From assembly GCA_905178155.1 (NCBI GenBank), contig CAJINV010000007.1:3490265-3554264 (forward strand): a DNA stretch of 64,000 bases, read 5' to 3'. Source of the DNA: Amoebophrya sp. A120 (Eukaryota; Protista; Dinoflagellata). The stretch's first letter is position 1. Each line of letters opens with the position of its first letter. The position numbers were made by a program, and so were the translations under genes. Below are positions 21,136 through 64,000 of the stretch, one piece after another. Under the pieces are notes generated by a model. It was given only the letters and a program-made list of their open reading frames with translations. It did not search any database and was not told where the DNA came from.

Positions 21136-22602
21136 ATGACACCAAGCAGTTTCGCTTCAAGCTTTCTCTTCGTGGACTCACCTACCTCAACGATAACTAC
21201 TCCGTCGGTATTGCTGCGCTCTACGGCAAATGCGGACGATGATTTTGCTGAGAAGTATCGATCAACACGACTACTGTTCCCTGGGAACATGTCGGCAAAA
21301 CGAAGACGAAGGCGACCCACGGAATCTCCGCGTCATGGTAAAAGTAGCAACAAAGCCAGCACTAGCGCACGAGCCTCGGCGTTTTTGTGCAGCGGAGAAG
21401 AAGATCAATCTCGAATTATATCGACTACAAGAACAGCAACAGCACGGAAGCTGTTATCCTCGTCGACCCGTCCTTCAAACACTTCCTTCATCACCGTGAA
21501 TTGCAACGGGTTCCGCAATCACACTCCTCTTGCGCAAGCCCTGTACAATTCCCAACCGCATTGCCGCATCGGCGACGTGCCGCCGACTTCACAGCAGATC
21601 GTCTTGGTTGCGAAAGACGTGGACAACCTGGAGGATAACGGGGATGGGTTGGGCCCGCAACCGAAAACGCATTTGTTAGTGTCCCACGTCCCACCGTTCG
21701 ATCTGACCGACCCGGTGGGGACGGTGTCCGTGCCGAAGGCCCACGACACGGAGGTTTCTTCCTCCGACATGAAGGCGCAACTCATGGCGACGTATTGTGA
21801 GGAAAAATCCCCCCTCCCCATACCAAACCGGGACACTTCTGAAAATTTGTGATGCAGATTTGAAACCACAAATCGTCGCTGTATTGCATGAAGGCAAGTC
21901 TACAGGCTCCGCCACATTCTACAGGCGGTTTGTCATGCTGTTGCTCCTACAGCGTAGAGGTCTGCCATGCTAAGCGCCTAGGCCAAAACTTGTCTACTCA
22001 GGCCTGATACGGGCCTGCAGTCCTCGCCGGCAAGACAAATCTGATTTGTGGCCTCAAATACAGCATCACAAATTTCGTTTTCGATATGGGGAGGGGGGAT
22101 TTTTCCTTTCGATACGACGATGAAATTCACCAGCAACATGATGAAGAACCTGGTCAACATCATGCCGGGAGACCCGAGCGAGAAGGAACTGCTTTGGAAC
22201 GAGACGAAGCACATGAACAACCAGATGAAGCGGAAAACCCACATGGACTACTTGACTTCCATCCCCTGGCGGTCGGTCCAGCCGAGTCGCGAGGAATTGC
22301 TGGCGGGAGTTCGGGGGATCGAAGACGAGTACCCGCACCGGCTGGTGTTTTCCGCCTACGCGCTGGACCGGTCGTTCCACGACGAGATCAAGGCGAGATT
22401 GGTGAAAAATTGGACGTGGACATCGTTGCACAACTTGATCCGCAAACACGTCTTGGAACGCGCGGACACCACGGCGATCGTCTTGCGGCAGAGGCCGGCG
22501 GACATTGACGCGAAAGTGTACGACTACCGCAACCCGGATTCCAGTGCGGTGCTGATGCAAAGCTACAAAGACGCGTTCAGCTACAGCAAGAAGATCGGAT
22601 GA
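21136..22602 (+). CDS. Hypothetical protein, two exons split by a TIR introner
   Basis: Exons 21136-21792 and 22120-22602 join in frame (LMAT|MKFTSNM) after removing 21793-22119. Confidence 0.7.
21793..22114. mobile_element. Introner, family C (322 bp, TSD CGACG)
   Basis: TATTGTGAGGAAAAATCCCCCCTCCCCATA ... TATGGGGAGGGGGGATTTTTCCTTTCGATA. CGACG at 21788-21792 and 22115-22119. Homologous to 56689-57005. Confidence 0.9.
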
Positions 22603-24584: not shown

Positions 24585-25067
24585 ATGGGCCTCCTTCCCA
24601 AGGCCGCCGTGACGAGCGGCTTCTACTTGTACTTCCCACTGATCGACATTGCGCAGACGATGATTTTCGTTTTCATGTCGCTCTTCACGCCAGCGGACAT
24701 GCTTGCCATGATCTTCCCCGATGCTAGCCTGACGGACGAAACCTCGCTCGCATTCGTCCAGCTGATGGGGTTCATGATCTTAACCCTCTGCGTTGCCGAG
24801 GCGATGATGCTCCTTCTCGGCCACAAGGCGATCGTGTTCTGGATGCGGTTCCAGCTGATTTTCATGGTTGGCTTCGCGTTTATGTGGTACAAACTGTCCC
24901 CGAAATACTTCTTTTCGCCCTTGAACCTGTACCAGACGCCGCCGTTTTTGTTCATGTACTTCTGGGCCGGGTTTGTGCACTACAAGCGGAACGGAATCCC
25001 GCTCAGCGACGGGGACGCGGGCTACACGGCGTCGGGAACGGAAGGAGTCGGGTTGATGGCGTATTGA
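24585..25067 (+). CDS. Small multi-pass membrane protein (about 4 TM)
   Basis: ORF 24561-25067, ATG at 24585. Several long hydrophobic segments. Confidence 0.75.
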   Translation: MGLLPKAAVTSGFYLYFPLIDIAQTMIFVFMSLFTPADMLAMIFPDASLTDETSLAFVQLMGFMILTLCVAEAMMLLLGHKAIVFWMRFQLIFMVGFAFMWYKLSPKYFFSPLNLYQTPPFLFMYFWAGFVHYKRNGIPLSDGDAGYTASGTEGVGLMAY

Positions 25068-28800: not shown

Positions 28801-31800
28801 AAAGCGGTTGCTCTACGACACATTGCAGAGGTATCCACAGAAAAAAACCCATCCACATCCAATTTGTCATGCAAAAAACGTATCAAGTCATGTGTTTGTC
28901 ATGCAAAAAATGAATGTGGATGGGTGTTTTTTCCTGCATAAGAGGAGGCTGTTGGATTCGAAAAAATCCCACAAGTCTGCGGAACAGGAACTGAGAGAAC
29001 TGCACCATATTCTGGACACGACGAAAACAGCCGTCGTTGGGGGGAAGGTATTTTGAAATTTGTACTTCATCTTCGCACTCAATATTTTGTATCGGTTCAA
29101 CATCGCTTTTGGTTTTATTGACGTGAGTGACCTAGTAACCGAATGAAGCGCTCGCCCTGTTCATTTCAAAAAACTCTATGTATAAATATGTACGAAGCGA
29201 CTACTTAAAATAAGGTCACCGTCGAGCGCGGCACTTCTTCCTCTTCCACCTACCGCGACGTGTGCTCGCCTGTCATGGCGGATCGTGACGATGAGCTGGC
29301 GGCCGCGGAGAAGGGGCCGGCAAACGCAAACAAAACTGTGAAAGCTTTGATATGGCGTTCTCAACTGTTACATTCTCAAGTGTTACATGGATTTGTCATG
29401 CAAGAATGGGAGAAGTGAAAGGGGGGAGGTTGCATCTGTAGCATTACAAATTCCGAACAGATTTGGGCGCTGTTTAGCCATTCGCACATTTGTCATGCGA
29501 AGCAGCTTGATCGTGTGGATCTTGATGATCATTTTGCATGACAAATCATGTAACAGTTGAGAATGTAACGTTTGAGAACGCCATACTTGAAGCGGTTACC
29601 ACTGCCGGAGAAATTCTGTCCTGTGATTCTGGATGCGAAGGGGATGGACGCTGGTGGTACTTGGTTCTTTGGTGATGTCAATGGGATGTTGCTGTGTGTA
29701 TTATGGTATGCGCTTTTGTTTTCTCGGGCTGGTAAAAATATTGTCAAGTTCATTGTTTATGGCTCACTAGTACCTCGGCGTCCCGTAATATCCTCCCATT
29801 GCCTTTGCCATAGCCATGGTCGGACGATGAATGCTCCGAAAAAAAACAGGTATTTCAGTCCCGCCCCACGACCCAGCTGCACCACAACACTCTTCCTCGT
29901 CTACCGCAGCGTCATCCGAAGCACCACAAGTCGTGGTCTCCCCAGAGCTAACCGCGACCCTGACGGAGCACTACAGGAATTTGGCAGTCCACGGCACCGG
30001 GCCGGTTTTTGAAGATCCAAACATTCTCGTTTCCGTCGCGAGTATCGAGCCGGATAACATCATATCAACGGGAAACAATTTTCCGTTCCCGTACACGTAC
30101 GGTGCAAATGCTGTTATTTCTGCATGACAAACTTTTCCTTGAATTCTCTTCCGCATGACAAGTCGCTTCTTCTAAGTTCTTGGTGAAATTTTTGATGCAT
30201 TCTGCACATGTGCGGGAAATTTGTATTGCATACATCACCTTCCACGTGCTGAACAAGGGCAACATGCCGGCGGATGTGCTGGATTTCGAGCTCGCGCTAG
30301 TCGGGAGTAGTGGAAACAGGGTTTTGCTGGCGCAGAAAGAGGCCGAGGAGAAGAGCGCGAGCAGACAATACGGGTCCTTGTCCCCTTCCAAGCGTTCCCG
30401 GTCGCCGGCGAGAATTACAAATAGTTCGAATCGGCCAGGGGATCAAATGGATAATTCCTACGAGGATTTGTCTGGATTCTTGAAGCACAGCAAGCCGGTG
30501 AAAGGCGTTTTGATGACCGCGAAGACGGAGCCCAAGGAGATACAAGCAGCCAGCACATCAAAATCCCCGTCTTCGAGTCGGAATCTCGATACAACAAAAC
30601 CCTTCTGGTCCGGCAGACAGTCCCAGTCGGTTCCGAAAACGGTGCAACGAACCGGGCTCGGGCAGCTACCAGGCGAGCGGCACCGGGCGACAGCGTTGCG
30701 CTTGCCCAGCATTTGGCCGAAAAACGCGCAAACCTGCGAAGTGCGGTTGATGAACTATAATCAGCAAGGAATAGACGTGTCAGAAGGCGGGAATTCACAT
30801 GCAGCAGGACAAGCAACGGAGCAGGCCGGGGGTAAAAACAGCAGCTCCTCCTCGTCCAGCACTTCCCACCCGACAACTTCAGCAGCCAACAACAACACCC
30901 TGAACCTCCTCGATTCGATGCTGTACGAGGACGCGCCAATTCTAGAACTCTGGTACAGTTCCGGTTCCTCGGAAAACCTGACAAACTACTTCGCGATCCG
31001 TTTCCCCCTCCACGCCATTGTCCGGAAGTGCAATCTATGCATTGCAAAAGTACTATCGCACTAGAGTGGAAATGGAATGATAAATTTGCGCAAGTAGAAG
31101 AAATAAAGTCGAATTTGTCACGCTGATTAAACTGGATAAAAGATTATATTGTCATGCATGGCTGCATAATTGCTCCTTCTGCAAGTGCGATAGTACTTTT
31201 GCAGATGATACAATCTGCGACCGTTGTCTCTGATAAACCACGCCGCCTTCTTCGAGCGTTGGATGCAGAAGGAATTCCTGGAGAACGAAGTTTGTTTCGT
31301 CTCCAGGGCGAGGAAGGTGTTCTCGAAAGACAAAAATGGAATGCTGCATTTTCTTAAATGCTGTCAATTGGGGGACAGGTTACGGGCGTTGCCGCACTTG
31401 CAGTCGGACGGGGAAGTGGTTGCGACGAACAAGCCAACCTCGAGCGAAAGTAGCAGAAGTCAGTTGCCACGAGCTACTGCTGCCTCCTACAAGCTTCTCC
31501 TAGCCGCCGTCGTCCGACGGGCGACCGTCTCTCCGGAGGTTTTAGTGCAGGCAGAGATCGTGGACCAGAATGTGTTTGTCACGGTTCGGTCCACGCAAAT
31601 TGCGGTGTCACGAGCAATGAGCGCAGCTTTGGTGGACGTTTTAGCGGATGAAGGTTCAGTCAACGCCGGCGTTGCGGTCGCGGGGCAGGAAATGGTAATC
31701 GCGACCGAGAAGCAAAATGCCGCTGCAGCAACGTCTAGTTCTCCGAATCGCAGAAGTAAAGCAAACCAGCACAACATCCAACAAGGCCCCATTCCGGGCC

Positions 31801-32917: not shown

Positions 32918-35698
32918 ATGAGGTTACGTATGGCTGCGGACGACGGAACCCGCTGTGTCCGAAGTGAGCTCGTGTGGCTCCGAGTATGGTTCTTCTCGTC
33001 GTGCTCCCTGCTGCAGCTTCTAGCAAATTTCGGCGTTTTTAGCCACGCCATCCCTTTCCGCGATTTCTACTGGATCGAAAGTCACGACGCCGCTACGGGG
33101 TATCTGTACGCAAAGACATCGTCTTCAAGCATGGCCACAACGACGCTCTACTCGAACCAGAACAACATGCTGGGGACGTCGTCGTCGACGAGAGAAAACC
33201 CGATCAACAACTGGGTGATAACCCAGACCGGTCCGCTCTCTCACCAGCTCGACTGCGGCGCCCGTGGCTTCGACCTGCGACCAATGTGCTTCTTCCATGA
33301 AGACGAACAGTTCGAACCAACAACGGACCACGCAGGCGGAGACAAGTCGGAAAACATGGACGGCGCTCCTGCTCTTGACAAGAAGCTTGCTGGTGTGCGG
33401 CAAACCGATCCCGAGATTTACTTCCACCACGGGTTGATTCCTGTGAAAGTGGTAAAATTTGAGGACGTCCTGAACGAAGTTTCTGCCTGGGTGAAAAACG
33501 ACACAGAAACGACGGGCAATCAAGACCCGGTCATTCTCGACATGTCCCATTTCGTCAGCCGTACTGCCTCGACGAGGAGCGACGTGCAGGCCAGCTCAGT
33601 CGCTGGAGCTGATCACCTCGCGATGATTGCCGCCGGGAAACAAGAGGATGCAGGACGGGACACGTTGCGCCGTCAGAAAATAATCCCGGGAACGAAACGC
33701 GAACACGATCAGCGCTGCTACGAGGCGGTAAAGGCGCGGGCTGTTGAACTTGGATACCCTTGGTTTGATTCATGTAATTCCAGCATGGTAAACGTAAACG
33801 CGAACTGGCCTGGCCGGCCCGACGCAAAGCCAAAGCAATCCCGCTCAGGAAATGGTGGAGGTGTGAAGAGTCTCGCAGACACAGACGTGACAGATGTTGT
33901 CAAGACGTATGGGAGAATCCTGCTACTTCACGGAGCGGCGTGCGTAGATGGGAATTACGACCCTGGGGTGAAGTGTGAAGATTGGAATTTGCAGGACGTA
34001 CATGCTGAAAATCAGCTAGACAGCACAAGAGAAAAACTGGATGACGCGCAGCGAAAAACGTTCTCGCTGGGATACGATTGCCATACTGACAAGTCGGTGC
34101 CTGAGAGCAGGGTGCGAGTGGACAAAAAACATAGTTCTATCGCAAGAAGAGCCCCCACCGGCCGGGCGTGGGACACGTTCTTTTCTTACTGGGATAAAAC
34201 TGAAAAGAACGTCGATCATAAAGGTCGTTATTCAAGCGACACAGGTGGAGCAGCACGACACCCTCCTGCAAGGTCTGGGTTTCGCATGCTGCAAGCGCAT
34301 TGGCAATACGATGCGTCGAGTATCTCCTTTGCTGAGGCAAGATTTGGCTTGGATGCCTCCGTCTTGTTTGACAATGAAAAGTCAGGCATGAACTTTATCG
34401 CTGCAGACAGAGTACAGAAGAACGCCGGGGCGAGGAATAAAGCTTGGAATATCGTCGAGGTAAATGATATGGAAGCGTCAGGTTTGAAATCGTCAAAGTT
34501 GAAATACGGTAGGGAAAACTGTCCCCACTACCCCGGTTTTCCCCAAAGACAATTTTTTTTTTTCGATCCAATTGTAAGCAGGGCGGGCCCTTCGCAAGCG
34601 ACCTGCGCCGCGAATGGCCAGACCGAAGCCCGCTCCCCCAGGTGTGTTGCTGGACTCAAAGACACTGCACGCCTTGCCCGGCTTTTTGGGGCGCAAGCAG
34701 CTCGGGGCCCGCGAGGCAGCGCCCTGGGCAAGGCGCCCATGCCAGACCCGCCCCCCGGCCACCTAAGGCTGAACGCAATGCCCCTTGCCGCGGACCTGTC
34801 TTCTCCGCTTGAGGCTGGCCGGCACCGTTTCCCTGAGTGCATGTTCGGACACGCTGGCGAGAAAAAAAACGTATGCTGGGGATTTCGGCCCTAAGCAGCT
34901 ATCTACGCACTTTCGGCCTCCAAAACGAGCACCAGAAACCTCCCGAAAAGGTACGCATGCACGACCCCCAGGGAAACGGTGAGGCCGGAGCCTCAGAAGT
35001 TGGGCGCGGCCAGTGTGGCGGGGCCGCGTTGCAGTAGCCCACGCGCGGATGGGGCCGAAGTAGCTACACACATCCACAAAGCTTGCTGCCCCGTCAGCTC
35101 ATGCGCCGACTTTTGCGCGCCGCTATCCCGCTTGCTCCATTGCATACGTAACAACCTCAGAAAGTATCCGTGAAGAAGATCCACTAGCGGACACTATCCG
35201 GGCGGGCTGTGCGGCCGGTGGCCGTGTTGTTGCGTCAGTTCATAAAAAAATTTTTGATTTGGGGAAAACCGGGGTAGTGGGGACAGTTTTCTCTAACGTA
35301 TGAAATAATTTGTAATGCATAAAATGCATGACCCGAGGCGCGTGTGTTGCAGAGCAGGCAAGTGAGGCCGATTGTAAGCCTGTTTGGGGTTACAGCTCGA
35401 GCTGCTAAAGTAGCATGAGAAAATCGCTCTTCTTTGCCTAAACAGCACGACAAACTGGATTTAAGGGCCGCCAAGATTTGTCATGCGCCACTCGGAAACT
35501 GGGCTTCAGTTGGCATCCATTTTATGCATCACAAATTATTTCAACTTTGAGGATTTCAATCCTGACGTTTCCATAAATGACGTTTGCCTGGATAAAGGAC
35601 AACTTGCAAAGGTTGTGAGGACGTTGAATCAGGACGCTGAGGATCGTGAAAGAACGAACGAGAGCTCGTCAATCGACATGGAAGAAGTTCACATGTAG
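32918..35698 (+). CDS. PI-PLC X-domain-containing protein, probably secreted
   Basis: Motifs SHDAATGY, TQ..LSHQLDCGARGFDLRP, FHHG and VILDMSH, with a hydrophobic N-terminus. Exons 32918-34467 and 35581-35698 give WNIVEVND|VCLDKGQLAKVVRTLN. Confidence 0.85.
34468..35575. mobile_element. Introner, family G (307 bp core, TSD AATGA), carrying a nested element
   Basis: TATGGAAGCGTCAGGTTTGAAATC ... GATTTCAATCCTGACGTTTCCATA. AATGA at 34463-34467 and 35576-35580. Confidence 0.88.
34505..35300. mobile_element. Non-autonomous TIR DNA transposon (796 bp, TSD TGAAA)
   Basis: 43-bp TIR TACG(G/T)TAG(G/A)GAAAACTGTCCCCACTACCCCGGTTTTCCCCAAA with 2 mismatches. TGAAA at 34500-34504 and 35301-35305. GC-rich interior. 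Confidence 0.92.
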
Positions 35699-36594: not shown

Positions 36595-38244
36595 ATGCAA
36601 CGTCGCTCTTGTTCGCTCGGGCCGTTCGGCTCAAAAACTGCAGTCCGTTTGGTGTCTTTAAGCCAGATTTTCTCTTTGGTCTGCCAACTTGTCGATGCCA
36701 GTGCGGCGGGGGCTACGGCAACACAGCCACAAAGCTGCATTGGACGTTTCTGCAGCAAACTTGCGGGTCGTAACAGCCGGAACCGAGGTTCGGGTGCAGT
36801 CCCACTTCTGGCTCCTGCAACTTCTGTCGACCCGAGTTCTCCTCCACGCTCAAGTTCGTCTGAACGTGAATTCAGTGCAGACTCTGCTCCTCGGAGCGCG
36901 GCAGTATATACGATGCAGCCTCAGCGGCTGCGTCAGGAGCGGTGTGATCCGTCGAAATTTCGTTTTACAGCTTTGCCTGAGGAGTTGCAATTGAAAAGTC
37001 TTGAGTGCCTCCAGGATGGAATCACGGATGAAGATCCCGTGCGCAGCTTCCGGCACAACCCGGCATCTGTAACTTTCCGCAAGAACCCCGGGCTGAAGGC
37101 GTTACGCAACCTCCTGCAGGATGTGGAAGGGCCCGCAAGAAATTGGTGGTCCAATTGTCCGCCAGGAGGACAAGCTTCGGAGCCGTTTCCTGAAACGCTT
37201 GTAGCACAGAGTGAGCTGTTGCAAGCTCGTGTCCGAAACATCAGTGCAGTACAGCAGGCGGTGCGAGCGCGAGCCGAAGGACGAGATGGAGGTTACCCTG
37301 TCGGAAAATGGTTCCAGGACCAGTTGGAGCGTATTGCGGGCTTAGAACGAGGCAGTTTGTTTTCGGACGTGGCGCCTGCGCGCAAAGGCCTCCTCGAGTC
37401 TATTCTTGTCGCTGTGGAAACGAAACTTGGCTCCGCGGTCCGCAAGGCTGAACAGATCCGAAACGGGTTTGATGACGGTGAGGCGGAGGCCGGACATGCA
37501 GAGCAAATATTTGAGTATGAAGATAATGACGGGCAAGGCAAATATGAGATATCGATCAGAAACGCCATGCACCTGCCAAATCGTGGGCGCGGCTTTGTTG
37601 TTAGCCTGGAAATTCTGTCGAACGAGTTTAGTGATGACGTCATGCGAATTATCCTCCAGAAAAGCGTGCCCCACGCCCCAAAGCCAAGATGGAACATCAA
37701 TCTGCTACATACGCAAATGGAGAAGGTTTTGCTGTTGCGCATTACAACATTGGGCCTCCTCCAGCGTAGTGGTGATTGGCTACTGAAGTCGCGTCGCAAG
37801 ACCTTGATCATCTGACCCTAATTAACAAAGCCTGACAAATCCCCAGATGCTGGCATTAGAGACTGTCGTTATGGCGGGGTTCTTGCGCATGAGAAACATT
37901 GTGCGTCGTGGCATGCAGTAGATGTGCTTGACAAATGTTGGGTGGGGACGTTTTTACACAGGATGCAAATGCTCAGCCACTGGTGGTACGACCGCACTAG
38001 TGATGATTGGGGACGAAATCTTCATTGGGTTCCCCTTCGCCTAGCTGAAAACGAAGCGCAGACGCTCCGATTCCCCGTGGTCAGCCCGCTCGTTATTAGA
38101 CGCCCACATGTGCCACGGCCGGGAAACCCAAACGGGGACCTGTATTTTGGAGTGAAATTCGATCAAGGCGACGAAACCGGGAACGGCCGCTGGGGAGTCA
38201 GTATTTTCTTCGTCCCCGACCGCACGCGCGACGAAAACTCCTAA
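36595..38244 (+). CDS. Hypothetical protein with a signal-like N-terminus and an F-box-like motif
   Basis: Exons 36595-37649 and 37971-38244 join in frame (DVMR|MLSHWW). FTALPEELQLKSLECL resembles an F-box start. Confidence 0.6.
37650..37965. mobile_element. Degenerate introner, family C2 (316 bp, TSD CGAAT/CAAAT)
   Basis: TATCCTCCAGAAAAGCGTGCCCCA ... TGGGGACGTTTTTACACAGGATG. The right end resembles that of 62784-63062. Confidence 0.7.
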
Positions 38245-49004: not shown

Positions 49005-50159
49005 ATGTCTCCGGCGCTGATTAACCGCAGCAAAACACGGATCAGGAGCCAGGGAGTTGAAAGCGCCACGTTTCTGAAAACAACTCCGGACAACAATGCG
49101 GATGACAAACCTGATGGTTACCAGAAGAACTACACCAACGCCGAGCCGTGTCGTAATCACCTGTACTACCAAGTTAACATGATTCACAACTACTACAAAA
49201 AGAACGAGCAGAACAGACCCCAACATCGATTCGAGTACAGGGGCAATTATCCCTATAATCGTTACGACAACCGCGACCGCCCGGTCCCTCCTGCGCCGCG
49301 GGAGCAGACCAAAGCGGAGAATGCAGTTCTACCTGGGTGCCAGTTTCTCTTCAAAACAGAGGAGGAGCGGGATTTGTTTGTCAAAGATGCGAAGACTATG
49401 CAGAAGATTCTCTGCGACATGTGCACGACGGGGAAATTTAAGCGTGTGGTGTTGGAGGTGATGGGCAACAGTGACGGCTTTCGCGAAAAGGAGCAATTCA
49501 CTGCGGTGTACGAGAACAAGTTGATGCAGGTCATCCACGCGCATTACGCCGAGCGCGCCCACAACCAGTACAATCGCCAGACAGACCACACAAATTGGAA
49601 AAAGATCGCGGAAGAGTTCGTTCTAGTTCTCGACGACGCGGGCGGCTGGGGCATGGAAATTTTGGACGGGAAGACCCGCGGGGAAGCGCCGAACCACCCG
49701 GTGAAAGCAATGGACTGCGGGTTTATACATTGCAAATATGTCTGAGTCTGGAAGAGTGCGAATTTGTGATGCGAACTGGTCTACATCATGACAAAATCTG
49801 TCATGCGTGGCTAGCGAAAGGCCACAGCTCTTGTTACCGAAAGAGGGGATGTGTCATGCCGATTAGGCATTGGGGTACCTGGTGCTCCAAGTCTGTGATG
49901 CTAGAGCTTGCATGCCAGACGATCTAGGTCAGGCAAAAACTACATGACAAACCTTGCATCGTCCTTCCAGACCCAGACATATTTGCATTTGATAGGGTTG
50001 GTAATGGAGCAAGTGTTTAAGAGTCGCATGCACCTGGACGAGAGCGAGGGGGGGAGCTTCTCTGACCCGGTGACCTTCCGTTTGATCGGGAAAATTGAGG
50101 AGAGAGATAAGGAGCGGGAGGCGGCGCAGGGCGCGGCACAGCAGGCAAAGAACAAGTAA
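49005..50159 (+). CDS. Hypothetical protein, at least two exons
   Basis: 49005-49723 joins 50000-50159 (MDCG|LVMEQVF). The 5' end may extend upstream. Confidence 0.7.
49724..49994. mobile_element. Introner, family B (271 bp, TSD GGGTT)
   Basis: TATACATTGCAAATATGTCTGAGTCTGGAA ... TTCCAGACCCAGACATATTTGCATTTGATA. Confidence 0.9.
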
Positions 50160-52896: not shown

Positions 52897-53146
52897 ATGA
52901 ATTATGTAGTCGTACGATCACGATTAATACGGGAACCGCACCATGGGTCTTTTTTTTCGCACTGATCTTCCCCTTCTGTTTCTGAGATGTTACTCTTACT
53001 CCTGTCTTTAAAAGGCTTCTCGAGGTATTTTTCGTAAGCATTTTTCGGATTGCAGGCGCTGAATGAGCAAGGTAGAGCACCCAGAATAGAGAGTCCTCGT
53101 CAAGTATTTTCTCCGCCTGCTCTCGCTTCTCGTCCTCGCACCCAAA

Positions 53147-54420
53147 ATGCGGGGACTACGTCGCTGCCCTAACGTTCTTGCGCTGTCACCTCTCGTCGCG
53201 GCTTGCTTCGCTACAACTTCACGACTTTTCTCACTTTTCGCTGTGCCACTGTCTGCCCAATTATCTGGGACACGACCTGTAGGCAGCGTAGTACAACAAG
53301 AACCTCCGCCAGCAATGAACACTGCGCAAGAACTGAGCAACGGCCTCGCCAACTGGAAGCCCGGCGCGGGGAGTTGGCAGGAACTGGGTGACCTCTTCAC
53401 GAACAGCGGCACGGGCATTGGCATTGTTCTCGGCCTGGGCCCAGATGCGAATTTCGCGAGGCAATTTTTGCACATGTGGACCAACGGGGTGTTGTACCTG
53501 TGCGACCCGTTTATCCACATCTTCAACGGCTACGACGATCCGGAATATAACGTGGACGACAAGACGCACCAGATCAATTTCGAAAACATCCGCGTGACCC
53601 TGATGCAAACCCCTACCATCCAAGGCCGATACTCGATGGTCCGGGAGTTCAGCTTCAGCTTCTACCGCCTTTGGCTGAAGCAAGACCCGCAGTACGACTT
53701 CGGGCAAATACCGCCGAGGTTCATTTTCGTGGACAACAATCCGAGCAAAGACGCGGTCTTGCGGGACATGCACGACTGGTGGGAGTTACTTCTACCGGGC
53801 GGCGTCATGGCGGGCGCCAGGCCCGAGCATCCGGGAGTGTTTCACGCGGTTGAGAGCTTTGCGAAGTTGCACAATCTGGAACCCTATCAACTGCAAAAGT
53901 GTCTGGGTCTGGAAACTTGTAATGCTGCGTTGGGAATAGTAAATGCTCTGCAATGCACAGTTAAGCATGATGAGAAATATCTGCGGTTTTTTGTGTTGCG
54001 TTTTTCGCATGACTTGCATGACAGGCAAAAGGGTCTCTTCTTGGACACGCTTCACAAACTTTTTGGTCATGCCAGGCAAGCATGACAAATCTTCCAGACC
54101 CAGACATTTTTGCATTTGATAAACCCCTGCTGGTCACGGACGAGCAGACCTCGATCGGGTTCGGCTGGTTTCTATCCACAGAAAAAAACCCATCCACATC
54201 CATTTTTTGCATGACAAACACATGACTTGATACGTGTTTTGCATGACAAATTGGATGTGGATGGGTTTTTTTCTGTGGATAGTTTCTCATCAAACCGAAC
54301 GACGACGCGACAAACGAAGAATACATGCGGAAGGCGGAGGAGATGAAGCGCGTCGCCGACGAAGCGCGAGAAAAGGAGGCAAGGAAAATGCAAGAAATAA
54401 CCTCGAAAGTTGAGTTGTGA
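53147..54420 (+). CDS. Class I SAM-dependent methyltransferase-like protein (Methyltransf_24 type), secretory pathway
   Basis: GIVLGLG, LYLCDPF and FIFVD..AVLRDMHDWWELLLPGGVMAG. Exons 53147-53884, 54127-54172 and 54287-54420. Hydrophobic N-terminus; the spliced C-terminus is KVEL*. Confidence 0.8.
53885..54121. mobile_element. Introner, family B (237 bp, TSD AACCC)
   Basis: 30-bp TIR with 2 mismatches. Removal gives HNLEP|LLVTDE. Confidence 0.92.
54173..54281. mobile_element. Introner, family A (109 bp, TSD GTTTC), inverted relative to the copy at 28832
   Basis: Perfect 30-bp TIR TATCCACAGAAAAAAACCCATCCACATCCA. Removal gives GWF|LIKPN. Confidence 0.95.
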
Positions 54421-55262: not shown

Positions 55263-58200
55263 ATGCGTCCCCCTCCAGGCGGTGGAGCGATTCATTCGAA
55301 CAACCCCAACATTTCCACCAAACAGAGGGGGCCAGCACCTCCGGGAGGAGCACCCCCCCTATCGTCAGAGCAGGAGGAAATGAGATATGCGCAGCAGCAG
55401 CAGCAGCGAGCTTCACCTTCGAACAACCAGATGGTTCTTTTGTCCAATCCACAGCCAGCCTCCGTTACGTCGTCCACTTCCGGTGGCGGGGCGGGGACAA
55501 GTGGTTCCAGGCCTGGTGCAACGAGCTCCAAAGAGTCGTCCAGTGGAGGGAGCAGCAGTGGGCAGGAGAAAGACCCCGTGAGGTTTGGGACGGACGCGAC
55601 GAAAAGGGAAGATTTCGATCAGGAGTTCGAGCAATATGTGTTATCGGAAGACTATCCAAGAAGAAAAAAATGCTATGAGTAACTTTGTCATGATGCGCAA
55701 CTACATGCAAGATGATTGTGTACTGTGTCATACTGGTGCTGTGGATTTTAGGGCCCAGTATTCATGTGCCTTTTCGTGTGCTATTTGCGCATGACAGGTT
55801 TTTGCTGTCATGCCACACAGATCTGCAATGCTGCTCCGCAAAAAAAGTTACGCGTTGTACTCCTGCACTTTTTTCTGTTGGATAAAGACGCACGGCGCCG
55901 GAAAAAGAAGTGGACCTACGCAAAAGCATTTGGGGGCGCCGCGGTGGCCGCGAGTTCAGGGGCGCTATTTGGAATCCCGCTTGCGGCAATGGTACTAAAC
56001 ACGTACAATTTTTTTTTTTCCACGCACGAGATTTTTTTTTCCACGCATGAGAGGTGGAAAGATATCGAGAAGCACGCCCATGCGTCATGCATTATGATGA
56101 CCTTGACCACACACAGTAAAGAATTATCTTTGACGGAACATGAAAAAACAGGTCCTCATGGGCGCTGCGGGTGCGGGCGCTGGGATGTTCGGAATGCGGC
56201 AGATGAATGGGAAGGACGGGAAGCAGCGCGGCCAGAAATCCATAGAGGACGAAGCCGGCCCGGGCGGGCGGTCGCCGGGGCGCAGAAGGTACGCGACGCA
56301 CAAACGATTTTTGCAAACCGGGCGCCCGCCACCCAGTCTGAAGCGGGTCCGGTTTCTGATCAAGTGGGCGTCGATCAAGATTGACGAACTGGAAGAGGGA
56401 GACCACCCGGGCGTGATCCAGTATGAGACTGCACAATTCCCCCTCCCCCTCATTTGTAATGCAAAGTACCAAATCCATATCCACCCTTTGCCTCTTGGCA
56501 CGTTTTGCATGGCAAGTTCTGGAAGCCCAAATAGCACTACACTCCTGTGCAAATTTATCATGCAAAACCTGCATTCTTGCTGACACTTATAGTGCCGCTC
56601 ATGCTATACAAATAAGGGGGAGGGGGAGTTGTGCGCTGTCATATCCAGCTGATGGATGACATTATCTCGGAATTCAGCTTGGTGGTGGTATCAAGAAGAA
56701 AAATCCCGCCTCCGCATATCAAAACGGAAATCTGTGCTGCAGATTTGTGTCCACAAATCAGCTCTGTCATGCTAGAAGGAAAAAGATGCGGACTGTAGTG
56801 CTGGGTGGCGTGCGAAAGCCTTGCATCTTCAGCATGACAGGAGGCAGCTGGAAGTGGGGCGCAGCGTGACAAATTGCCTGCGAACGAGGCCACAACTGCG
56901 GGTCTTGGCCTTTTAGCAATACAAGACGACTTGTGTGCTCAAATACAACATCACAAGTTGAAGCTTCGTTTTCGATATGGGGAGGGGGGATGTTTCCTAG
57001 CGATAGGTGGAGGCCGCAAAAACCTCACTGAACGCTGAAACGGAACGGCAGAAGCTGCATGCATTCGTGCGCTTTTTGGAGAAGATAAAAACCTACAAAA
57101 AGTACGCGCATGCGAATCAGGTATAATATTGCGTATGCTACATAGAATTAGAATGAAGCTTTTCATCTTCTGCAAGATGAAATGAAAATGATGTACTCTT
57201 GTTACCTTATCGTTCGTCCGTTGCTGCAGTCTTACTTCCGCAGTCGTTGTCGTTGTGGCATCGCGGCTTTTGCGCATGACACATCAAACCTACACCATTA
57301 GGTCTGGCTCAAATCCTGGGAGGAGTCAAACGATGAAGAGCTGAACGAGATTGGTGACGTGAACAGCCGAATGGTGCTTCCCTCCGATGCCTGGCTCCGG
57401 CTGCAATTTGTCTTCCCCACCATCATTAACATTGCGAAAATCCTCTCCGCGCACGAGAAGGTGCACAAGACCGCGCACCTGGGCTGCACCCCTATGCATA
57501 GCAAAAGTATCGTACTTGTACTACATGCAGTACAGTACGACACATCTGGTGGTCTCGTGGCTATTTCAGCAATACAAATCATATTTTTCCTTGTGGTTCT
57601 CGTTCTTGTGGAAAAAAATTTTATTGTATTGCTATTTCATTCATCTACCACTACTAGTACGATGCTTTTGCAATGCATAACCGCGGTCGGGGGGCAAATC
57701 GTGAACGCGATCGATCACTTGGCGGATTGGTGCTACTCTGTGCTGTCGATGAGGCGAGTGAAGCGGTTTCTGGCGGAATATGAGGAGATGGCCGCGGCGG
57801 CATTAGAGGACAACGCGAAGCAGCAGGCTCTGTTGGACGGTAAGATGCAGGTGGAGGAGGATAGTGATTCGACAGAAAAGAAAAACGCAAAATCTGACGG
57901 AACGCTGCTGAAAGCCGCGTCGCCAGCTACCGTCGCAAAGGTCGAGAAGTCGTATAAGGGGATTTCGACGAAAAATGATTTAGGAGGAGGGATTGCAGAT
58001 GATGATCCGTCTACAGGTTTCAAGCCGGACCCGAGAATAGCAGGGGTGAAAACTACCACACAGACACAAGGAATATACAACTACAGAGAACAGCCACCGC
58101 CACCGCCAGGTGCACCAAATAACACTCCAAGTAACCCAGCGACCCCCTCCGCTGCATCATCTTCCCGCAGTAATAAAGCGACTTCAAAAAGCCCGGCGAA

Positions 58201-61200
58201 AAAAACGAAAGCGAAATCAGGGACGTCTCTCTCCCCCGAAAAACAACAGATGCAGCGTGGGAGTATCCAGGCGAGACAGCATAACAGCTTCCACTCGCTT
58301 CCGGACGACGCAGATGGGGATCAGGATGACAATGACGCAGAGGAGGATGATATGAGAGTGCACAATGGTCCATCCCCGCCTCCTCACTTGAAGCGGGGGG
58401 GGCATGAGCAGCAACACAAACAACGGCAGAAATGTAGTGACTTTCCCATGACAAAACTGCAACACCAGGGTCTGTTGTACTGCTATTCGAGGTTGTTCTA
58501 CTAAAGTTTACCATGCAGAGAGAGTCTATATAGTGGCGGCAGAAGCTTATTTTTTGGAAAATTTAAAAAAACATTGGGTGTCATAGATACTGGCTGCGGA
58601 GAGCACCACCACCGCCACGTGTGTCGAGCGTGCTCGGCTGCGGCGCCTGTGCAGCCGCGGTTGGAATTGATCGGAGAAAAAGAAGGTCGGGCGCCTGGTT
58701 GACATAAATGATAGGGCTGGGGGGCTGAACCTTACGAAGTGCACTGCACTCGCGGGCCCTGGCTCTAGCTCGATGCCCCGCCGAGGCCTGCGCCGATAGT
58801 AGTGGGGCCGCCGGCAAGCGGGCCCTGGTGGCATGCTTGCCAGTGGCTTCGCGTGTGTGTTTTGGCAGCGCGCCGGGCAGCAGGATGGGCCGGGGAGATG
58901 TGGCGAGGAGAAGCATTTCCGTGCCAGGCTTGTGAAAAGGCCTCGCTTAATGGCCGCGGGAAAATAACAACGCGCCCCGGGCTGCTAGGAGGGTGCGCTT
59001 TTTGCCTCCCGCAGCCCTTTCTGAAGCGTCGCCCGGCGGCTCTTGCTGCTTTTCTACCAGCTCTGGTGGCTGGCCCTTGGAGGGGCGATCGCTGGCGCGC
59101 CGGGGTTTCAGAGGGGCCGCGAAAGGGTCACCGCACCGGCTGGAGAACATGAAAAAAGCCCCGGAAACGTGCGGCGGCCAAAAACCGCGCCCGTTTTGAA
59201 ACCTGGGAGCAAGAGCGCCTGCCGCCGGAGTACCACAACCAAACTCCGGGCTGGAGGGGCGGAAACTCTTGGTCGCTGCGGCTGTGTCACTCCCGCCCCG
59301 GCCCCTGGAGGGGGCGTGGCAAGCGATTGGCCCGACCGAATGTCCGCCGCCCAGCGCACCCCCAAAGCGCGGGGCCTTTGCCTCTTTTGGAGGGGCATGA
59401 AACGGCACAAAGCGGACTGCCCCTCCTGCGTGCGTTATGCCCCGCAAGGGCAGTGGGGGTTCGCAGAGTAAGCCAGGCCAGAAGGGCTTCATTGATCGCC
59501 AAAAGCGCCGCCAGCCCCGTCCCTTTCCTTTTTGCCGCGCCATACTCGGATCGGGACAAAGCACGTGGCCGAACACTACCCGCCCGACCAGTCCTACCGA
59601 CTACGCCCAGTCGGGCACCTTCAACGAGGGCCAAGGACAGGGCGACGCAGATGCGCACCCACGGCCAAGGAAGGGAGCGCGCGACCGCAAAGAAACGGCC
59701 GCCCACCCCTTCTGCGTGTTATCTCCGAGGCGCGTCCCTAGCCCGCCCGCCCGCGGAAACCCGGGGAAGCGGCAGGGCCCCGGTCGCACCAAACGGGCGA
59801 AAACCCCTCCCCCACCCGAGCATGCGCCGGCGGCGAGAGGAGGGGGAGCAACCTGAGCAGAACTTGTTGGGCCCCCTCTTCCGACAGCCCGGAAGCTGGC
59901 CGCCTTAAATGGGCAAGGGTTTCGTGGAACGGCGCGCGCCGAGCACCCCGAACCCGGTTGGCACGCTTGTCGCCTCGACGGAGCTTCGGTTGGGAGGCTC
60001 CCCAACGGAAATGTGAGCCGGGCAACCGGAAACACCTGCCGGGGTAGGCTAAAGAGGCACCCCCCCAAAGTGGGCCCGTAGCATGCGGGGTCGCTCTTGC
60101 TTAGGGCCACTTTTGGAGACCCTATCCGGGCACCCCCGTCCGCGGGGCCCGGGGGGGCCCCGAAGTGGAAAACCAGTTGCGGCAAGGGCGGTCACGCAGC
60201 ACGCGCCCCACATGCGCCCCGGAGCGGCCGCGGGGCTGCGCAGCTGCCCGGGAGCTTGGCTCCGATTGCCCCGGCAAGCAAGAGCGCCGGCGGTCCTGGC
60301 GCCCCAAGCGCGTTGGCTTCTGGTTTTGGCGCCATGCGCCCCTCGGTCTGGCCGAAGGAAAACAGCGACAACAAGCACGGCCCACAGCATGCCGGTAGTG
60401 TTTTCCCCTGGAAATTGGTCCGCGTCCGCCCTGCATTGCCAGCCGGCCGGCTTCGCAATGTTGGCAGGGCGGCGCGCCGAAAGAGTAAGGCGGCCGTGGC
60501 GGTCCTGGTGTTTTTGGCATCCTCTAAAAGGGCCCCGGGCGCCGCGCACCTCTGCGCCCTACCTACTGCGCAAGCGCTGTGGATTTCGGCTCGGGCCAGG
60601 AAAGCAGTGGGGCGGCGGAGCCAGGCCTAATCCTTTCCGCCGTATATTTTTCAGGAAATCGGCCCAAGGCACGGCGGTCGGCCGAGGGGGCTTTTCAGGT
60701 TGTAGCCCGCCCGGGCTGGGGCCACTAGAGCACGGCGCGCCGCGGTCGGGCCCCCCTTACGCGGGCCGTCTGATCAGTTCCCCACCTGCAAAAAGGGGGG
60801 CCCGGGTGCCCCGCTGTGTTGCCCAGCGCGGCGGCGCTTGTACTCTGGCCTCCAAACGTGCTGGCAGTGTCGGCGGGCGGTTGTTTTCCGCGAAATTGGT
60901 ATCCGAAATGCCGCCGGGTAATTCTTGCAAGGAATCCCGCGACTTGGCGGAAGCGCGCTAGGGGGCGGCTTGGGAGGTGTAACCAAACCGCAGGCGCCTT
61001 GGCTGGGATGGAGCCACGTCTCCGCCCGCTTTGCAGGAATGGGGCTGCTCGAAAAGAGCGAGTGTCGCGCGGTTGGTGAATTGTGGTCTGCCGAGCAGGG
61101 GTCGTGGGCGGCGGCCGAGGGGTGTTGCGGCTCCTCGCCGGGCAATCAGGGATGGGCATTGCGGCCGATGATGCCGCCTGACCGGGGCGCAGGAGCATGG

Positions 61201-63612
61201 CCCCGGGGCATCTGGTGCGGCGCAAGGCGCTCGCCCATTCCACATCACGCCGTGCCTTTGGGTTGGCCAGATTCGGCCGCGCCTGCCGGGCCTCCGCCTG
61301 CCCCGACCAAATTCGGAGCGGCGCAGACCTGGCGGGATTGGCCCGTCTAGGGGTCAACGACGGGCCCGGCTCCCTGCCCACGATGCCCGCTCTAGCGTGC
61401 GCGGACGTTAAAGTTGACGTGACCTTTCGCGCCTTCTGCTAGGGGTTCTGCGGTGGTGTGATGTGTTTGACTTTGCGGCAGCACGGCAGAGCAAACTGGG
61501 TAAGCGTTGCGCTGGCGTGGGTCTTACGCCGTCCTGAGTCCAGAAGCGTGATGATTCGGCTGGGCTGCGGGGCCCACGATAAAGCCACCCAATATTTTTT
61601 TTAATTTTCGCAAAAATAAGCTTCTGCCGCCGCTATAGTCTAAAGCTACTTACGACTTGGAGTTGGATTTGTTTTGTTGCATCACAAAGGGCAGGGGAAG
61701 TTGTGCACTCCTGTCATAGATGATTACTTTCCACCGGAGGGCGCCGAGGACGAGTTTAGTGATGGGAGCGATTGTTTCCATGACGCGGAGTCCGATAACG
61801 ACATCGATCCAGAGATATCCATGCACAGCGACACCAGGTAGTACTTAAAGTTTTTCTTGTATGCAGCATCAAATCGTTGTACTGATGGCATGTGTTTGTT
61901 TTTGTGCAGAATGAGACCTCGGTCGCAGATGATTCTAGTAGCTTCGCACGACATAAATTTGTAAGCTCGCCGCGAGCCTACACTGTTGCCAAAAACTTTC
62001 AGATCAGAAGTTCCCTCGGTTCACCAGCCCTTTCGCAACAGCTGGCACGCGTTGTCAAATGGCCAAAACCCCTCGCACCACTCCGACTGCTTCCCCTATG
62101 TGGAGCCCGACAATCCAGAAAAGAAAAAGAACTGCTGGAGCCGGTCCGTCACGGCGTGGCAGGTCCGCGGGAAAAACTATCTGAAAGACAAGAAAAAAAT
62201 CGCCTCGCCCCCGCCCTTCGCGGTAGGCCTCGCGGCCGACATCTGTGACTGCCCCACGGCATTAGCGGTGTACGCTAGGCATCCAGAGGGATTTGTTCAG
62301 GTATAGATTGATGAAACGACTTTTTCAGAACAAGAATTATGATGGATTTATTCGTAAAAATTTTGCGATCTGGATGAAGATATTGATATGATATGGACCA
62401 TGAGTAGAACATCTTCACATTGTTCTTCGTGGTACGCCGCGAAATCGGAAAGAATAATCCCAAAATCAACAGCGTTGTCGAAAGGGCGGAGAGGGTCGGT
62501 TTCTGTTCGTGCTGAACTTTCGCTTTACCCCGAAGCATATCCTTTGCAAAAGTATCGTACTCGTACAAATGCCCGTCTTGCATGACAGATCTACTTGCAT
62601 ACCTGCATCTGCATGACAAGTTGCGCTTTTTCTTCTGCAGAAATTTGTCATACTCCTTCTACTAGTGCGATAGTTTTGTAATGCATAAAGCACATGGTCC
62701 TTGTGTGGGCCCTGGACCACAAGGAGTACCAAGACCCGATGTTCCAGAACTTTCTCTCCCTGCCGCCGGAAGAGAAAAGCAAATATTCTGAGTAAAAACG
62801 TCCCCACCCCAGAGTTGTCATGCAAATGTGCATGCCAAAAGCATCTCATGCGGAGCCCCGTGAGAAGCTCTTTCTAGGCGAGTTTTGGAGTTTGTGATGC
62901 TACAATCAGCATGATATGCTAGATTTATGATGCCCTGCTGAAATAGCCAAACAGGATTACACTTTGAGGGCAGACTTGTGATGCGAAACAAACAAAACTG
63001 GTTGATCTGTCTAGCAGGTTTGCCATCTTGATACCTTTCTGGGGACGTTTTTCCTCGCAATAGCAAACGCTTCAAATTCATCCCGTGCCTCGTCGAAGGC
63101 CCGTGGCTGGTCCGCCAGGCGGTGGGGACTAAACCGGCACTGCTGGGCAACAAAATTAAGTCCGATTGGTACCAGGGGGACGACTTTATAGAAATGTCCG
63201 TCGACATCTTCTCCTCCTCGTACGCCTCGCAAAAGTATCGCACTTCTAGTGCAAAACTGCATCACAATTTTTTTCAAGAACAAGGATGCAAGTTGTCATG
63301 CTATGTCAGGTGCTTAGAAAGAAAAATTAAGTTAGGGTTGTCATGCATGACTGGAATTATTTTTACCTGTGCGATACTTCTTTTGCAGAGGATACCTCGG
63401 CAGCCAGGGCGATTTTGGGGGTGACCAGCGGTGCGGCGCGGAAACTGATTCTGGAATTCGGTTTGTTGCTGGAAGGGCAGTCTGTGGACGAACTACCGGA
63501 GAGGATGATGACCGGATTTCGCATCATTTTCCCGGACCTAGACAAGGCGAGACTGATGTCTCCGGAGGAGGGCATGCCGCTGCTCAAAGGAGGCGGGGCG
63601 GCGCAAGGATAG
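55263..63612 (+). CDS. EDR2_C (DUF1336) domain protein with an N-terminal hydrophobic segment and an FFAT-like motif, 14 exons
   Basis: Motifs NCWS..WQVRGKNYLKDKKKIAS, RFKFIPCLVEGPWLVRQAVGTKPALLG, IEMSVDIFSSSAARAI and LEGQSVDELPE. Exons 55263-55652, 55890-55991, 56152-56421, 56649-56688, 57011-57120, 57302-57492, 57685-58350, 61724-61837, 61910-61960, 62003-62300, 62473-62537, 62693-62783, 63068-63220 and 63400-63612. The 61910-62002 region is tentative. Confidence 0.85.
55653..55884. mobile_element. Introner, family-A-related (232 bp, TSD AAGAC)
   Basis: TATCCAAGAAGAAAAAAATGC ... GCACTTTTTTCTGTTGGATA. Removal gives LSED|ARRRK. Confidence 0.85.
56422..56643. mobile_element. Introner, family D (222 bp, TSD TCCAG)
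   Basis: About 37-bp TIR TATGAGACTGCACAATTCCCCCTCCCCCTCATTTGTA. Removal gives GVIQ|LMDD. Confidence 0.9.
56689..57005. mobile_element. Introner, family C (317 bp, TSD GGTGG)
   Basis: Homologous to 21793-22114. Can be placed as GT-AG (56685-57006). Confidence 0.88.
57493..57679. mobile_element. Introner, family E (187 bp, TSD ACCCC/ACCGC), in frame and stop-free
   Basis: 28-bp TIR TATGCATAGCAAAAGTATCGTACTTGTA with 3 mismatches. Confidence 0.85.
58351..61718. mobile_element. Introner, family D (254 bp core, TSD GATGA), carrying a nested 3.1-kb element
   Basis: TATGAGAGTGCACAA ... TTGTGCACTCCTGTCATA. GATGA at 58346-58350 and 61719-61723. Removal gives AEEDD|YFPP. Confidence 0.85.
58529..61637. 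mobile_element. 3109-bp TIR DNA transposon (TSD GTCTA) with a GC-rich, apparently decayed interior
   Basis: About 52-bp TIR TATAG(T/C)GGCGGCAGAAGCTTATTTTT..GAAAATT..ATTGGGTG. GTCTA at 58524-58528 and 61638-61642. Confidence 0.92.
62538..62687. mobile_element. Introner, family E (150 bp, TSD AAGCA)
   Basis: Removal gives FTPK|HMVLVW inside the EDR2_C domain. Confidence 0.88.
62784..63062. mobile_element. Introner, family C2 (279 bp, TSD GCAAA)
   Basis: TATTCTGAGTAAAAACGTCCCCA ... TGGGGACGTTTTTCCTCGCAATA. Removal gives EKSK|RFKFIP. Confidence 0.92.
63221..63394. mobile_element. Introner, family E (174 bp, TSD CCTCG)
   Basis: TACGCCTCGCAAAAGTATCGCAC ... GTGCGATACTTCTTTTGCAGAGGATA. Removal gives DIFSSS|AARAIL. 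Confidence 0.9.
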
Positions 63613-64000
63613 CCGAGAAGCCTACCTACGCAATCAGACAGACATCACGACGACGTCGTGTTGTGCATTCGCCACAAGTGCTGGTTTGTTTCTGTGAAAT
63701 CGAGTTCGCCGGTGCAGTTTTCTTCGGTCTTGAAGAGCACTGAACATGTACTATACACCTTTCTCGATATTGAGCAGGACCACTGCTTTAGAGATGAATA
63801 CAGAAATCATATGATAGCGATGTTGAAATAATAATTCTATATTGATCTCTCAAGAACTCGAACTCGATGCTCAATACAATATAAGCTTAGGCTCACCTCA
63901 AGAAACTCTTTCGCAAAAAGTTGACGAGCAATGACTAGAGCTGGAGCTCACGTAATTATTTGAGGCTTTTATTTCAGCAAGAGCTTGTTGCTGGTGTTGT

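Follow-up and report, generated by a model that had tools for sequence, protein, structure and literature searches.

A constrained internal box shared by transposon-derived introns in a 64-kb window of the Amoebophrya sp. A120 genome

According to the text of Farhat et al. (2021, PMC7789003), Amoebophrya genomes carry transposon-like introns in the tens of thousands, and these are taken out of the RNA in the absence of normal splice signals. A stretch of 64,000 nucleotides from the dinoflagellate Amoebophrya sp. A120 (GenBank assembly GCA_905178155.1, contig CAJINV010000007.1, positions 3,490,265 to 3,554,264; hereafter the window, with positions counted from its first letter) contains a series of such introns, or introners, and a short sequence, here called the box, recurs inside them in both orientations. 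The locus raises the question of whether the box is a genuine feature of these introners and, if so, what it is that reads it. It was confirmed that the box is a real, strongly non-random and constrained cis-element of transposon-derived introns, a class already known. Its function was approached from this one 64-kb window and a set of selected loci.

The box has the consensus (A)TTTGT[C>G,A; never T]ATGC(A-rich), with a 10-base core of TTTGT[C/G/A]ATGC. It is nearly palindromic (TTTG..CATG..CAAA), contains no CpG and is common to about ten families with repeat arms of differing sequence. Counted on both strands, the exact 8-mer TGTCATGC occurs 33 times in the window (18 plus-strand and 15 minus-strand matches) against 2.11 expected and a maximum of 6 in 100 dinucleotide shuffles, and TTTGTCATGC, with up to one mismatch, occurs 60 times against 6.01 expected (shuffle maximum 14). 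When the tandem-repeat zone at 40500–45900 was masked, GCATGACA was the most frequent 8-mer of the window (n = 32), ahead of poly-A and CAG runs. The delimited elements account for 3,978 nt (6.2% of the window) and hold 25 of the 33 exact and 46 of the 60 one-mismatch matches (binomial p = 6e-24). Eight exact matches lie outside them: two are exonic (26526 and 28327), three were recognised by eye as degenerate element remnants (46542, 46594 and 47791) and three are without placement (41869, 47990 and 57274). No match, exact or with 1 mismatch, was found in bases 1–21499.

The recurrence of the motif in both orientations within introners, as proposed in the original prediction, is thus borne out by the counts. 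Its list of 24 positions proved accurate to within 2 nt of a match in 23 cases; no match exists at 28886, the real neighbours of which are 28895 and 28897, and ten exact matches were missing from the list (26526, 30153, 41869, 46594, 47990, 49852, 54016, 55806, 56832 and 57274). For exons a single instance (28327) had been given; there are 2 exact exonic matches, 26526 being the second.

Elements were delimited by repeat searches and by a scan for TA..TA ends with a perfect 5-bp flanking duplication and arms matching in at least 13 of 20 positions. The elements resemble miniature inverted-repeat transposable elements (MITEs) and are 109–322 nt in length, with one of 1,108 nt owing to a nested insertion (Table 1). 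They end in TAT...ATA, outside which 14 elements have a perfect 5-bp target-site duplication (TSD) of varied sequence, and their arms, the terminal inverted repeats (TIRs), are 20–58 nt long with 76–100% complementarity; predicted folds show terminal stems. In nearly all ends the arm begins with TAT, about 7 variable bases and an A-rich tract and is otherwise family-specific. The shared TAT, variable bases, A-rich tract and 5-bp TSD indicate that the elements form one superfamily. The description of the families as otherwise different therefore stands for the sequence of the inverted repeats but not for these common heads or for the length of the duplication. The box is present with at most one mismatch in 15 of the 16 TAT-type elements of the window, the exception being 57493–57679, and the first inward box mostly lies directly behind the inverted repeat, as the suggestion that it sits just inside the TIR had it. 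Pfam searches with 21 long open reading frames (ORFs) of the window returned a tubulin domain and a weak methyltransferase match and no transposase, and Rfam at gathering thresholds gave 0 matches across the whole window.

RNA evidence was sought for 21500–40400 in RNA-derived contigs (X3 and X6) and raw RNA-seq reads (X9 and X10); the two raw runs covered 4–5 of 30 bins and confirm one introner, and elements beyond 45900 (45900–64000) were delimited by structure alone. Ten RNA junctions were found in this region. Three are ordinary GT..AG introns, and seven correspond, base for base, to an element plus one copy of its TSD, with 3–7 ambiguous bases at the joints. For six of these, no permitted cut yields a canonical reading (ends in Table 1). 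The seventh, 28827–28940 of family F1, can be read as GT..AG by shifting the cut inside the TSD, because the TSD AGAGG gives a G before TAT and an AG after ATA. Its inverted twin at 54173–54281 has the TSD GTTTC, which offers no AG. In the RNA-validated part used for box counts (21500–39100), 10 exact and 22 near matches to the box fall in the 7 non-canonical introns (2,470 nt), none of either kind in the 3 GT-AG introns (498 nt), and 2 exact and 2 near matches in the other 14,633 nt, in the last case at the exonic sites noted above. All 7 RNA-validated non-canonical introns therefore contain a box, compared with 0 of the 3 GT-AG introns.

DNA contigs of the same organism run uninterrupted across 31031–31210 and 37647–37967, so that these two introners are present in DNA and missing from RNA. 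Among 15 of 85 joints in the DNA contigs X1, X2, X7 and X8, none was equal to an RNA junction, a comparison that rare excision could escape; these contigs break off within repeats. Thousands of other DNA contigs match the elements at 21500–22130, 28441–29702 and 34120–36012, with many different flanks beyond position 29585, which indicates that the families are highly repeated in the genome. Over 18.9 kb, 4,381 X1 contigs were recorded, although summed depth cannot be read as a copy number.

The position of the box relative to the element terminus was surveyed at 98 ends, of which the window supplied 30 and related loci 68, taking the first inward box within 130 nt. It was found 31–35 nt from the terminus at 22 ends, 39–45 nt from it at 26 and elsewhere at 21, and 29 ends had no box in the inward orientation. 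Both preferred classes contain several families with unrelated arms. Spacing between boxes is also constrained. Of the distances between same-direction neighbours up to 120 nt apart in the window, 8 of 14 are 31–34 nt, or 7 of 13 when the F1 copies are counted once (simulated P about 5e-5 for a cluster in any 4-nt bin). The spacers in such pairs are unrelated in sequence, and each element has 2–5 box copies. Opposite-direction pairs cluster at 32–33 and 47–50 nt, with no clean helical period once corrected for the box centre. The minimal F1 element, at 109 nt, consists of little beyond two arms and two boxes.

To obtain independent copies, metagenome contigs were scanned for two exact boxes 20–24 nt apart. 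This gave at least 123 loci, many of which are unrelated tandem repeats; at least 42 share element families with the window at about 67–96% identity, and their flanks do not match. Among the matches listed, most family-sharing loci with a named contig belong to a single assembly, in which contig names start with JACKZZ01. As exact boxes were a requirement of the scan, conservation tests were limited to unselected boxes and window copies. Unselected TAT-type elements beside the selected ones (loci L001–L080) contain the box in 7 of 7 cases, 6 of them distinct, L009 apparently being the same as L050.

In a comparison of four families, in which window copies were set against consensuses of copies from other DNA and gaps counted as mismatches, the box positions differed at 31 of 210 (14.8%), the outer 30 nt of each arm at 58 of 410 (14.1%) and the rest of the element at 264 of 700 (37.7%). 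Nearest pairs were compared for substitutions only and at unselected boxes only. In 8 pairs with up to 15% divergence, 2 of 96 box positions had changed compared with 49 of 420 in the arms and 69 of 624 in the rest (box versus rest, p 0.003; versus arms, p 0.002), and in 15 pairs with up to 25% divergence the counts were 19 of 236, 109 of 750 and 275 of 1532 (p 7e-5 and 0.01, respectively); the F2 alignment behind these counts is without the left arm, and the differences may include more than post-insertion decay. Substitution of the box among close copies is thus about five-fold below that of the arms or the rest. With CpG columns excluded, close pairs differ at 10.4% of the rest and 1.1% of the box, so CpG content does not explain the conservation. 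In F2 alignments, unselected boxes appear as islands of identity amid a variable interior. Together, the counts and substitution rates rule out a motif that is equally frequent in canonical introns and other DNA or that lacks excess conservation. The earlier idea of a common binding site is upheld as far as functional constraint goes, in conservation, preferred offsets and spacing; the binding, and whether the box acts in DNA or in RNA, we infer.

The arms are maintained differently. In an alignment of 12 F1 copies (28832–28940, 54173–54281 and 10 loci), compensatory double changes occur in 7 of the 35 stem pairs predicted, without exception in the arms and mostly within the seven variable bases, several being AU/CG/UA exchanges, while no box column varies, even in the two unselected window copies. 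Evidently both F1 arms change together, by selection for pairing or by copying of one arm from the other. The seven variable bases differ between F1 subfamilies, yet are complementary between the arms of one element. In 8 copies of F2 the arms are more uniform, with compensatory changes in 5 of 93 pairs. The arms, in short, keep pairing rather than sequence, and the box keeps sequence. At the degenerate sixth base of the arm-proximal F2 boxes, as read off the alignment, 3 Watson–Crick, 3 wobble and 5 mismatched cases were seen, and this column is unpaired in the F2 consensus fold. Such a lack of covariation agrees better with individual sites being read by a protein than with a constraint on the stem. 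Predicted RNA folds have arm-proximal boxes extending the terminal stem or pairing together.

The window elements are members of the published A120 introner elements, with 4 of 4 tested defining features present. As described in the text of Farhat et al. (PMC7789003), A120 introners have the same inverted repeats, direct repeats at their borders, non-GT-AG removal and hairpins, and likewise fall into many families without an internal transposase in unidirectional gene clusters. The repeat signature given there, TAT, then seven nucleotides of lower conservation and three or more As, is also that of the window, and the direct repeat, there 3–5 nt, is here consistently 5 bp. That paper describes the repeat heads and states that family-specific repeat motifs were not detectable. 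The shared internal box, its offsets and its spacing have no mention in the passages and supplement text of PMC7789003 that were covered, the logos in its figures, which could show the box, being outside the search. The word "subterminal" is absent from the text of PMC12130899, the tables of which class A120 families as TIR DNA/Unknown with no motif in the rows covered. Literature string matches of the motif, among the matches listed, concerned primers or miR-152 work and nothing relevant, and no published report of the box was found. Introners of Micromonas pusilla and Aureococcus anophagefferens are likewise described as transposon-derived, with TIRs and TSDs, and intron-creating (PMC7789003, PMC9860276, PMC12130899), but the text of PMC7789003 gives those of Aureococcus constant-length repeats and canonical splice motifs, whereas the junctions in the window are mostly non-canonical.

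The reading favoured here, tentatively and with confidence a little short of even, is that the protein responsible for mobilising the elements docks on the box, as a subterminal site in double-stranded DNA. The box would accordingly be read by a protein, and the element ends would be bipartite, combining a terminal cleavage signal (TAT, about 7 free bases and an A-run) with a sequence-specific binding box. The box would lie about 3 or 4 B-DNA helical turns inward of the terminus, repeats of it at intervals of about 3 turns would place the bound proteins on one face of the DNA, and the sequence from terminus to box could drift freely while the two arms remain complementary. If the arms need only pair and the box is what is read, one mobilising system could serve hundreds of families with unrelated repeats, and with ends of this bipartite kind the features conserved across families would reduce to TAT, the A-run and the box. 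Support for a DNA site comes from the orientation independence of the box, its clustered copies at fixed spacing, the minimal F1 element, the splicing of 37647–37967 with degenerate boxes and the removal of some 25,000 published hairpin introns that belong to no family (PMC7789003). A TIR-flanked element with integrase-like ORFs, reported in Amoebophrya A120 in the text of PMC12130899, is a candidate for the source of the enzyme.

The introners at 28827–28940 and 30057–30231, both spliced from plus-strand transcripts, contain only plus-strand and only minus-strand boxes, respectively, and a sense-strand RNA signal is therefore unlikely. Strand-specific signals in introns include the branch site and splicing enhancers such as UGCAUG. 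The box, by comparison, is not on the sense strand of every intron that would depend on it. Nor are exact boxes required for removal, as 37647–37967 is spliced with one-mismatch boxes only. A branch-site role (UnAy occurs in either orientation, some 31–41 nt from the 3' end) and pairing with U6 or U2 small nuclear RNA were also considered and carry no weight here.

Subterminal repeats bound by transposases are well known from the P element (10-bp THAP sites inside 31-bp TIRs), En/Spm (12-bp TnpA motifs) and Ac (AAACGG). These sites, like the box, are short motifs inside the terminal repeat, in both orientations, conserved amid drift, and the box is indeed found in both orientations and subterminally at both element ends. 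The TSD is 8 bp for P and Ac and 3 bp for En/Spm, compared with 5 bp here. Unlike in these systems, the window arms are wholly different between families and covary, the elements act as introns, and binding is something we infer. Transib elements and RAG signals consist of a heptamer starting with CAC, a 12/23 spacer and a nonamer and have a 5-bp TSD; the likeness is one of layout only, namely a terminal signal, a free spacer in two lengths about one helical turn apart, an inner box and a 5-bp duplication. The window termini start with TAT and not CAC, and the spacers, 12 and 23 nt long in Transib/RAG signals, here measure about 28 and 37 nt and are complementary between ends; no RAG- or Transib-like protein was seen. 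Ends of the Transib or recombination-signal type were rejected on the TAT start and on the box at 31–35 or 39–45 nt, with only the 5-bp TSD and the bipartite layout in agreement. Stowaway and Tourist MITEs, derived from Tc1/mariner and PIF/Harbinger, have a TA or TWA TSD; this type was rejected because the TSDs here are 5 bp of varied sequence.

Several observations weigh against a docking site for a mobilising protein. No transposase or binding protein was identified in this analysis, and the text of Farhat et al. reports A120 to be without transposase (PMC7789003). Two elements, 34505–35300 and 58529–61637, have perfect 5-bp TSDs, ends starting with TA and a fresh look, but no box. They have evidently transposed, and should this be the work of the same enzyme, transposition can do without the box. 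The host of each is a box-bearing introner, a nesting that better fits a role of the box in RNA. The box changes far less than the arms (2 of 96 versus 49 of 420), and if this reflects post-insertion decay it implies selection in place and thus a host-level or RNA function. Fetching loci by a pattern that demands boxes also leaves small samples of 96 to 240 positions. Compensatory change in 7 of 35 pairs, as in F1, is classically taken to mark a hairpin under selection, here one with a conserved box at its apex, and offsets of 31 and 41 nt with a spacing of 31–34 nt fit the turns of A-form RNA almost as well.

These points lead to the main rival reading, on balance doubtful but to be taken seriously, that the box is an RNA-level mark, bound by a factor at the apex of a pre-mRNA hairpin to direct exact non-GT-AG removal at the base of the stem, with about 3 or 4 helical turns possibly being measured along the stem. 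The presence of boxes in 7 of 7 non-canonical but 0 of 3 GT-AG introns is in line with this, as are the covarying arms around an invariant box and the predicted folds, in which TIR-proximal boxes lengthen the stem or pair through their near-palindromy. The preservation of the box beyond that of the arms in close copies would be expected if each genic copy must stay removable; moreover, the two box-less TIR elements occur only nested within box-bearing introners, and box offsets from the terminus form two sharp classes. The text of PMC7789003 acknowledges the mechanism of introner removal as an open question and reports that U1 small nuclear RNA was not found in Amoebophrya. Yet the box occurs in either orientation relative to transcription, which leaves only a double-stranded or palindromic reading, and 37647–37967 is spliced although its boxes are degenerate. 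Inverted and direct repeats without any family relationship are also described for about 25,000 other non-canonical introns of A120 (PMC7789003, main text), and the removal of these introns suggests that a hairpin is needed and not a shared sequence. Internal boxes at the 31–34-nt spacing are often predicted to be unpaired, and no single ruler applies, as 21 of 69 box-bearing ends belong to neither offset class. The fuller proposal, that mRNA introns are removed independently of splice sites by a protein that sits on the box, measures 3 or 4 turns of the hairpin, and cuts and rejoins at the TSD, is unlikely; if true, it would make the transposons self-marking introns and constitute a new kind of mRNA intron removal.

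Two further explanations are less likely. Transposable elements can carry regulatory motifs, and the box could be a DNA site that a transcription or chromatin factor of the host binds, disseminated with the elements and unrelated to mobility or splicing; an AP2-type factor would be a guess from other alveolates. A short, near-palindromic box with a CATG core and clusters at helical-turn spacing would suit such a site, and a 22-nt satellite in the window repeats the related word TTTGG-CCATG. This explanation is nevertheless improbable: the boxes lie inside genes at element-defined positions and not at gene starts, a fixed position relative to the termini is a property of the element and not of host genes, and the element-free first 21.5 kb, which holds several gene starts, has no match. 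It is at least as improbable that the box has no function of its own, being either inherited from a single ancestral element or located at a mutational cold spot. Common descent is indeed likely in a single superfamily with shared termini and TSD length, and a box without CpG could be a cold spot. However, its surroundings, the arms included, can no longer be aligned from one family to another, and yet each element keeps 2–5 copies of the box; compared with neighbouring internal sequence of the same family, the box shows 2 to 5 times less change, a contrast left intact by the exclusion of CpG columns (10.4% against 1.1%), and its offsets and spacing are constrained despite different spacers.

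The box would be the first concrete cis-element to serve as a handle on the spread or removal of introners. It could be used as a pull-down probe and as a feature to correlate with splicing efficiency and element age. For annotation, the box together with TAT ends and a 5-bp duplication would predict non-canonical introns that gene finders miss.

Table 1. Introners and related elements of the window, with box positions (strand in brackets) and RNA evidence. "Structure only" denotes elements delimited by structure alone.
Feature	Coordinates	Strand	TSD and ends	Boxes	RNA evidence and remarks
Introner, 322 nt, family F6	21793..22114	.	CGACG, perfect; TAT..ATA, TIR	21846(+), 21929(+), 22030(-), 22063(-)	RNA contigs X3 and X6 omit 21788-22114, CG..TA ends
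Minimal 109-nt introner, family F1	28832..28940	+	AGAGG	28863, 28895, same direction, 32 nt apart	RNA contigs omit 28827-28940
Introner, 235 nt	29351..29585	.	TIR 39 nt	29392(+), 29441(-), 29489(+), 29536(-); outer two abut TIR	RNA contigs omit 29347-29586, TT..AC ends
Non-canonical intron AC..AT	30057..30231	.	degenerate ends	30122(-), 30153(-), 31 nt apart	Both boxes antisense to plus-strand transcript
Introner, F10 type	31036..31210	.	CAATC	31114(+), 31148(+), 34 nt apart	RNA contigs omit 31031-31210, CA..TA ends
Introner, family F2, 1,108 nt	34468..35575	.	AATGA; left TIR split by nested 34505-35300	35309(+), 35413(-), 35445(-), 35477(+), 35526(-)	RNA contigs omit 34461-35573, TA..CA ends; other genomic F2 copies are without the nested insert (DNA joints 34500>35305 and 34505>35313)
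Nested GC-rich TIR element, 796 nt	34505..35300	.	TGAAA; TAC..GTA ends, arms 44 nt	box-less	Contrast case outside the box-bearing group; inserted exactly within an arm of the host introner
Old degenerate introner, F8-related	37647..37967	.		one-mismatch only: 37830(-), 37887(-), 37926(-)	Spliced: 98 raw X10 reads and an X3 contig omit it, AA..CA ends
Introner-like, F10 type	46225..46375	.	imperfect TSD	variant 46323(+)	Structure only
Degenerate, F7-like, limits by eye	46446..46759	.		46542(-), 46592(+), 46709(-)	Structure only
Introner-like, family F4	49724..49994	.	GGGTT	49763(+), 49786(-), 49797(+), 49850(+), 49942(-)	Structure only
Introner-like, family F4	53885..54121	.	AACCC	54016(-, exact 8-mer), 54063(+), 54080(-); additional 2-mismatch copy at 53915	Structure only
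Second minimal 109-nt F1 copy	54173..54281	-	GTTTC	54209(-), 54241(-), 32 nt apart	Structure only; inverted relative to 28832-28940, 94%
Introner-like	55653..55884	.	AAGAC	55684(+), 55789(-), 55806(+)	Structure only
Introner-like, family F7	56422..56643	.	TCCAG	56453(+), 56554(+)	Structure only
Introner-like, family F6	56689..57005	.	GGTGG	56763(+), 56832(-), 56864(-)	Structure only
F10-type element	57493..57679	.		2-mismatch variants only	Sole TAT-type element of 16 without box
GC-rich TIR element, 3,109 nt	58529..61637	.	GTCTA; TIR 52 nt	box-less	Nested in box-bearing F7-like element with box variants 58446(-), 61679(-)
Introner-like, F10 type	62538..62687	.	AAGCA	62580(-), 62611(-), 62644(+), 62675(+); spacings 31, 33, 31 nt	Structure only
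Introner-like, family F8	62784..63062	.	GCAAA	62814(+), 62830(-), 62891(+)	Structure only
Introner-like, F10 type	63221..63394	.	CCTCG	63292(+), 63337(+)	Structure only

No credible ORF was found in either of the box-less elements, 34505–35300 and 58529–61637; the 3.1-kb element is Arg/Pro/Gly-rich in all frames and was judged to be non-coding. Two arrays of a 22-nt satellite occupy 40675–44172, the unit of which contains TTGGCCATGATC, a word related to the box (TTTG..CATG). The arrays flank a 1.2-kb segment bounded by 67-nt inverted repeats (41871–41937 and 43159–43225) with 76% complementarity, and the exact box copy at 41869 lies at an array edge; a link between satellite and box is speculative. 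More tandem arrays are present at 44286–45461, 45542–45814 and 42686–42850, with a 16-nt unit repeated 71 times, a 26-nt T-rich unit and a 13-nt unit, respectively, and the sequence at 44–46 kb shows a strong AT skew.

Outside the introner-rich part of the window, bases 1–21499 contain long plus-strand ORFs of up to 1,432 amino acids with no Pfam match and are without introner-like elements except for a doubtful one at 10058–10347. The ORF at 50962–52896 encodes a tubulin/FtsZ GTPase domain (PF00091, E = 2e-15) and sits between the inverted F4 copies 49724–49994 and 53885–54121. Raw RNA reads differ from the window at two positions: at 24265, A is replaced by G in 788 of 788 X9 reads (2026 run), older RNA contigs agreeing with the window, and an extra T follows position 38377 in 141 of 146 X10 reads (2026 run). 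A strain difference is more likely than editing in both cases. Two plus-strand transcripts are delimited by loose ends, which carry the template-switch oligo at their starts (23973 and 36826) and poly-A at their ends (25429 and 39109).

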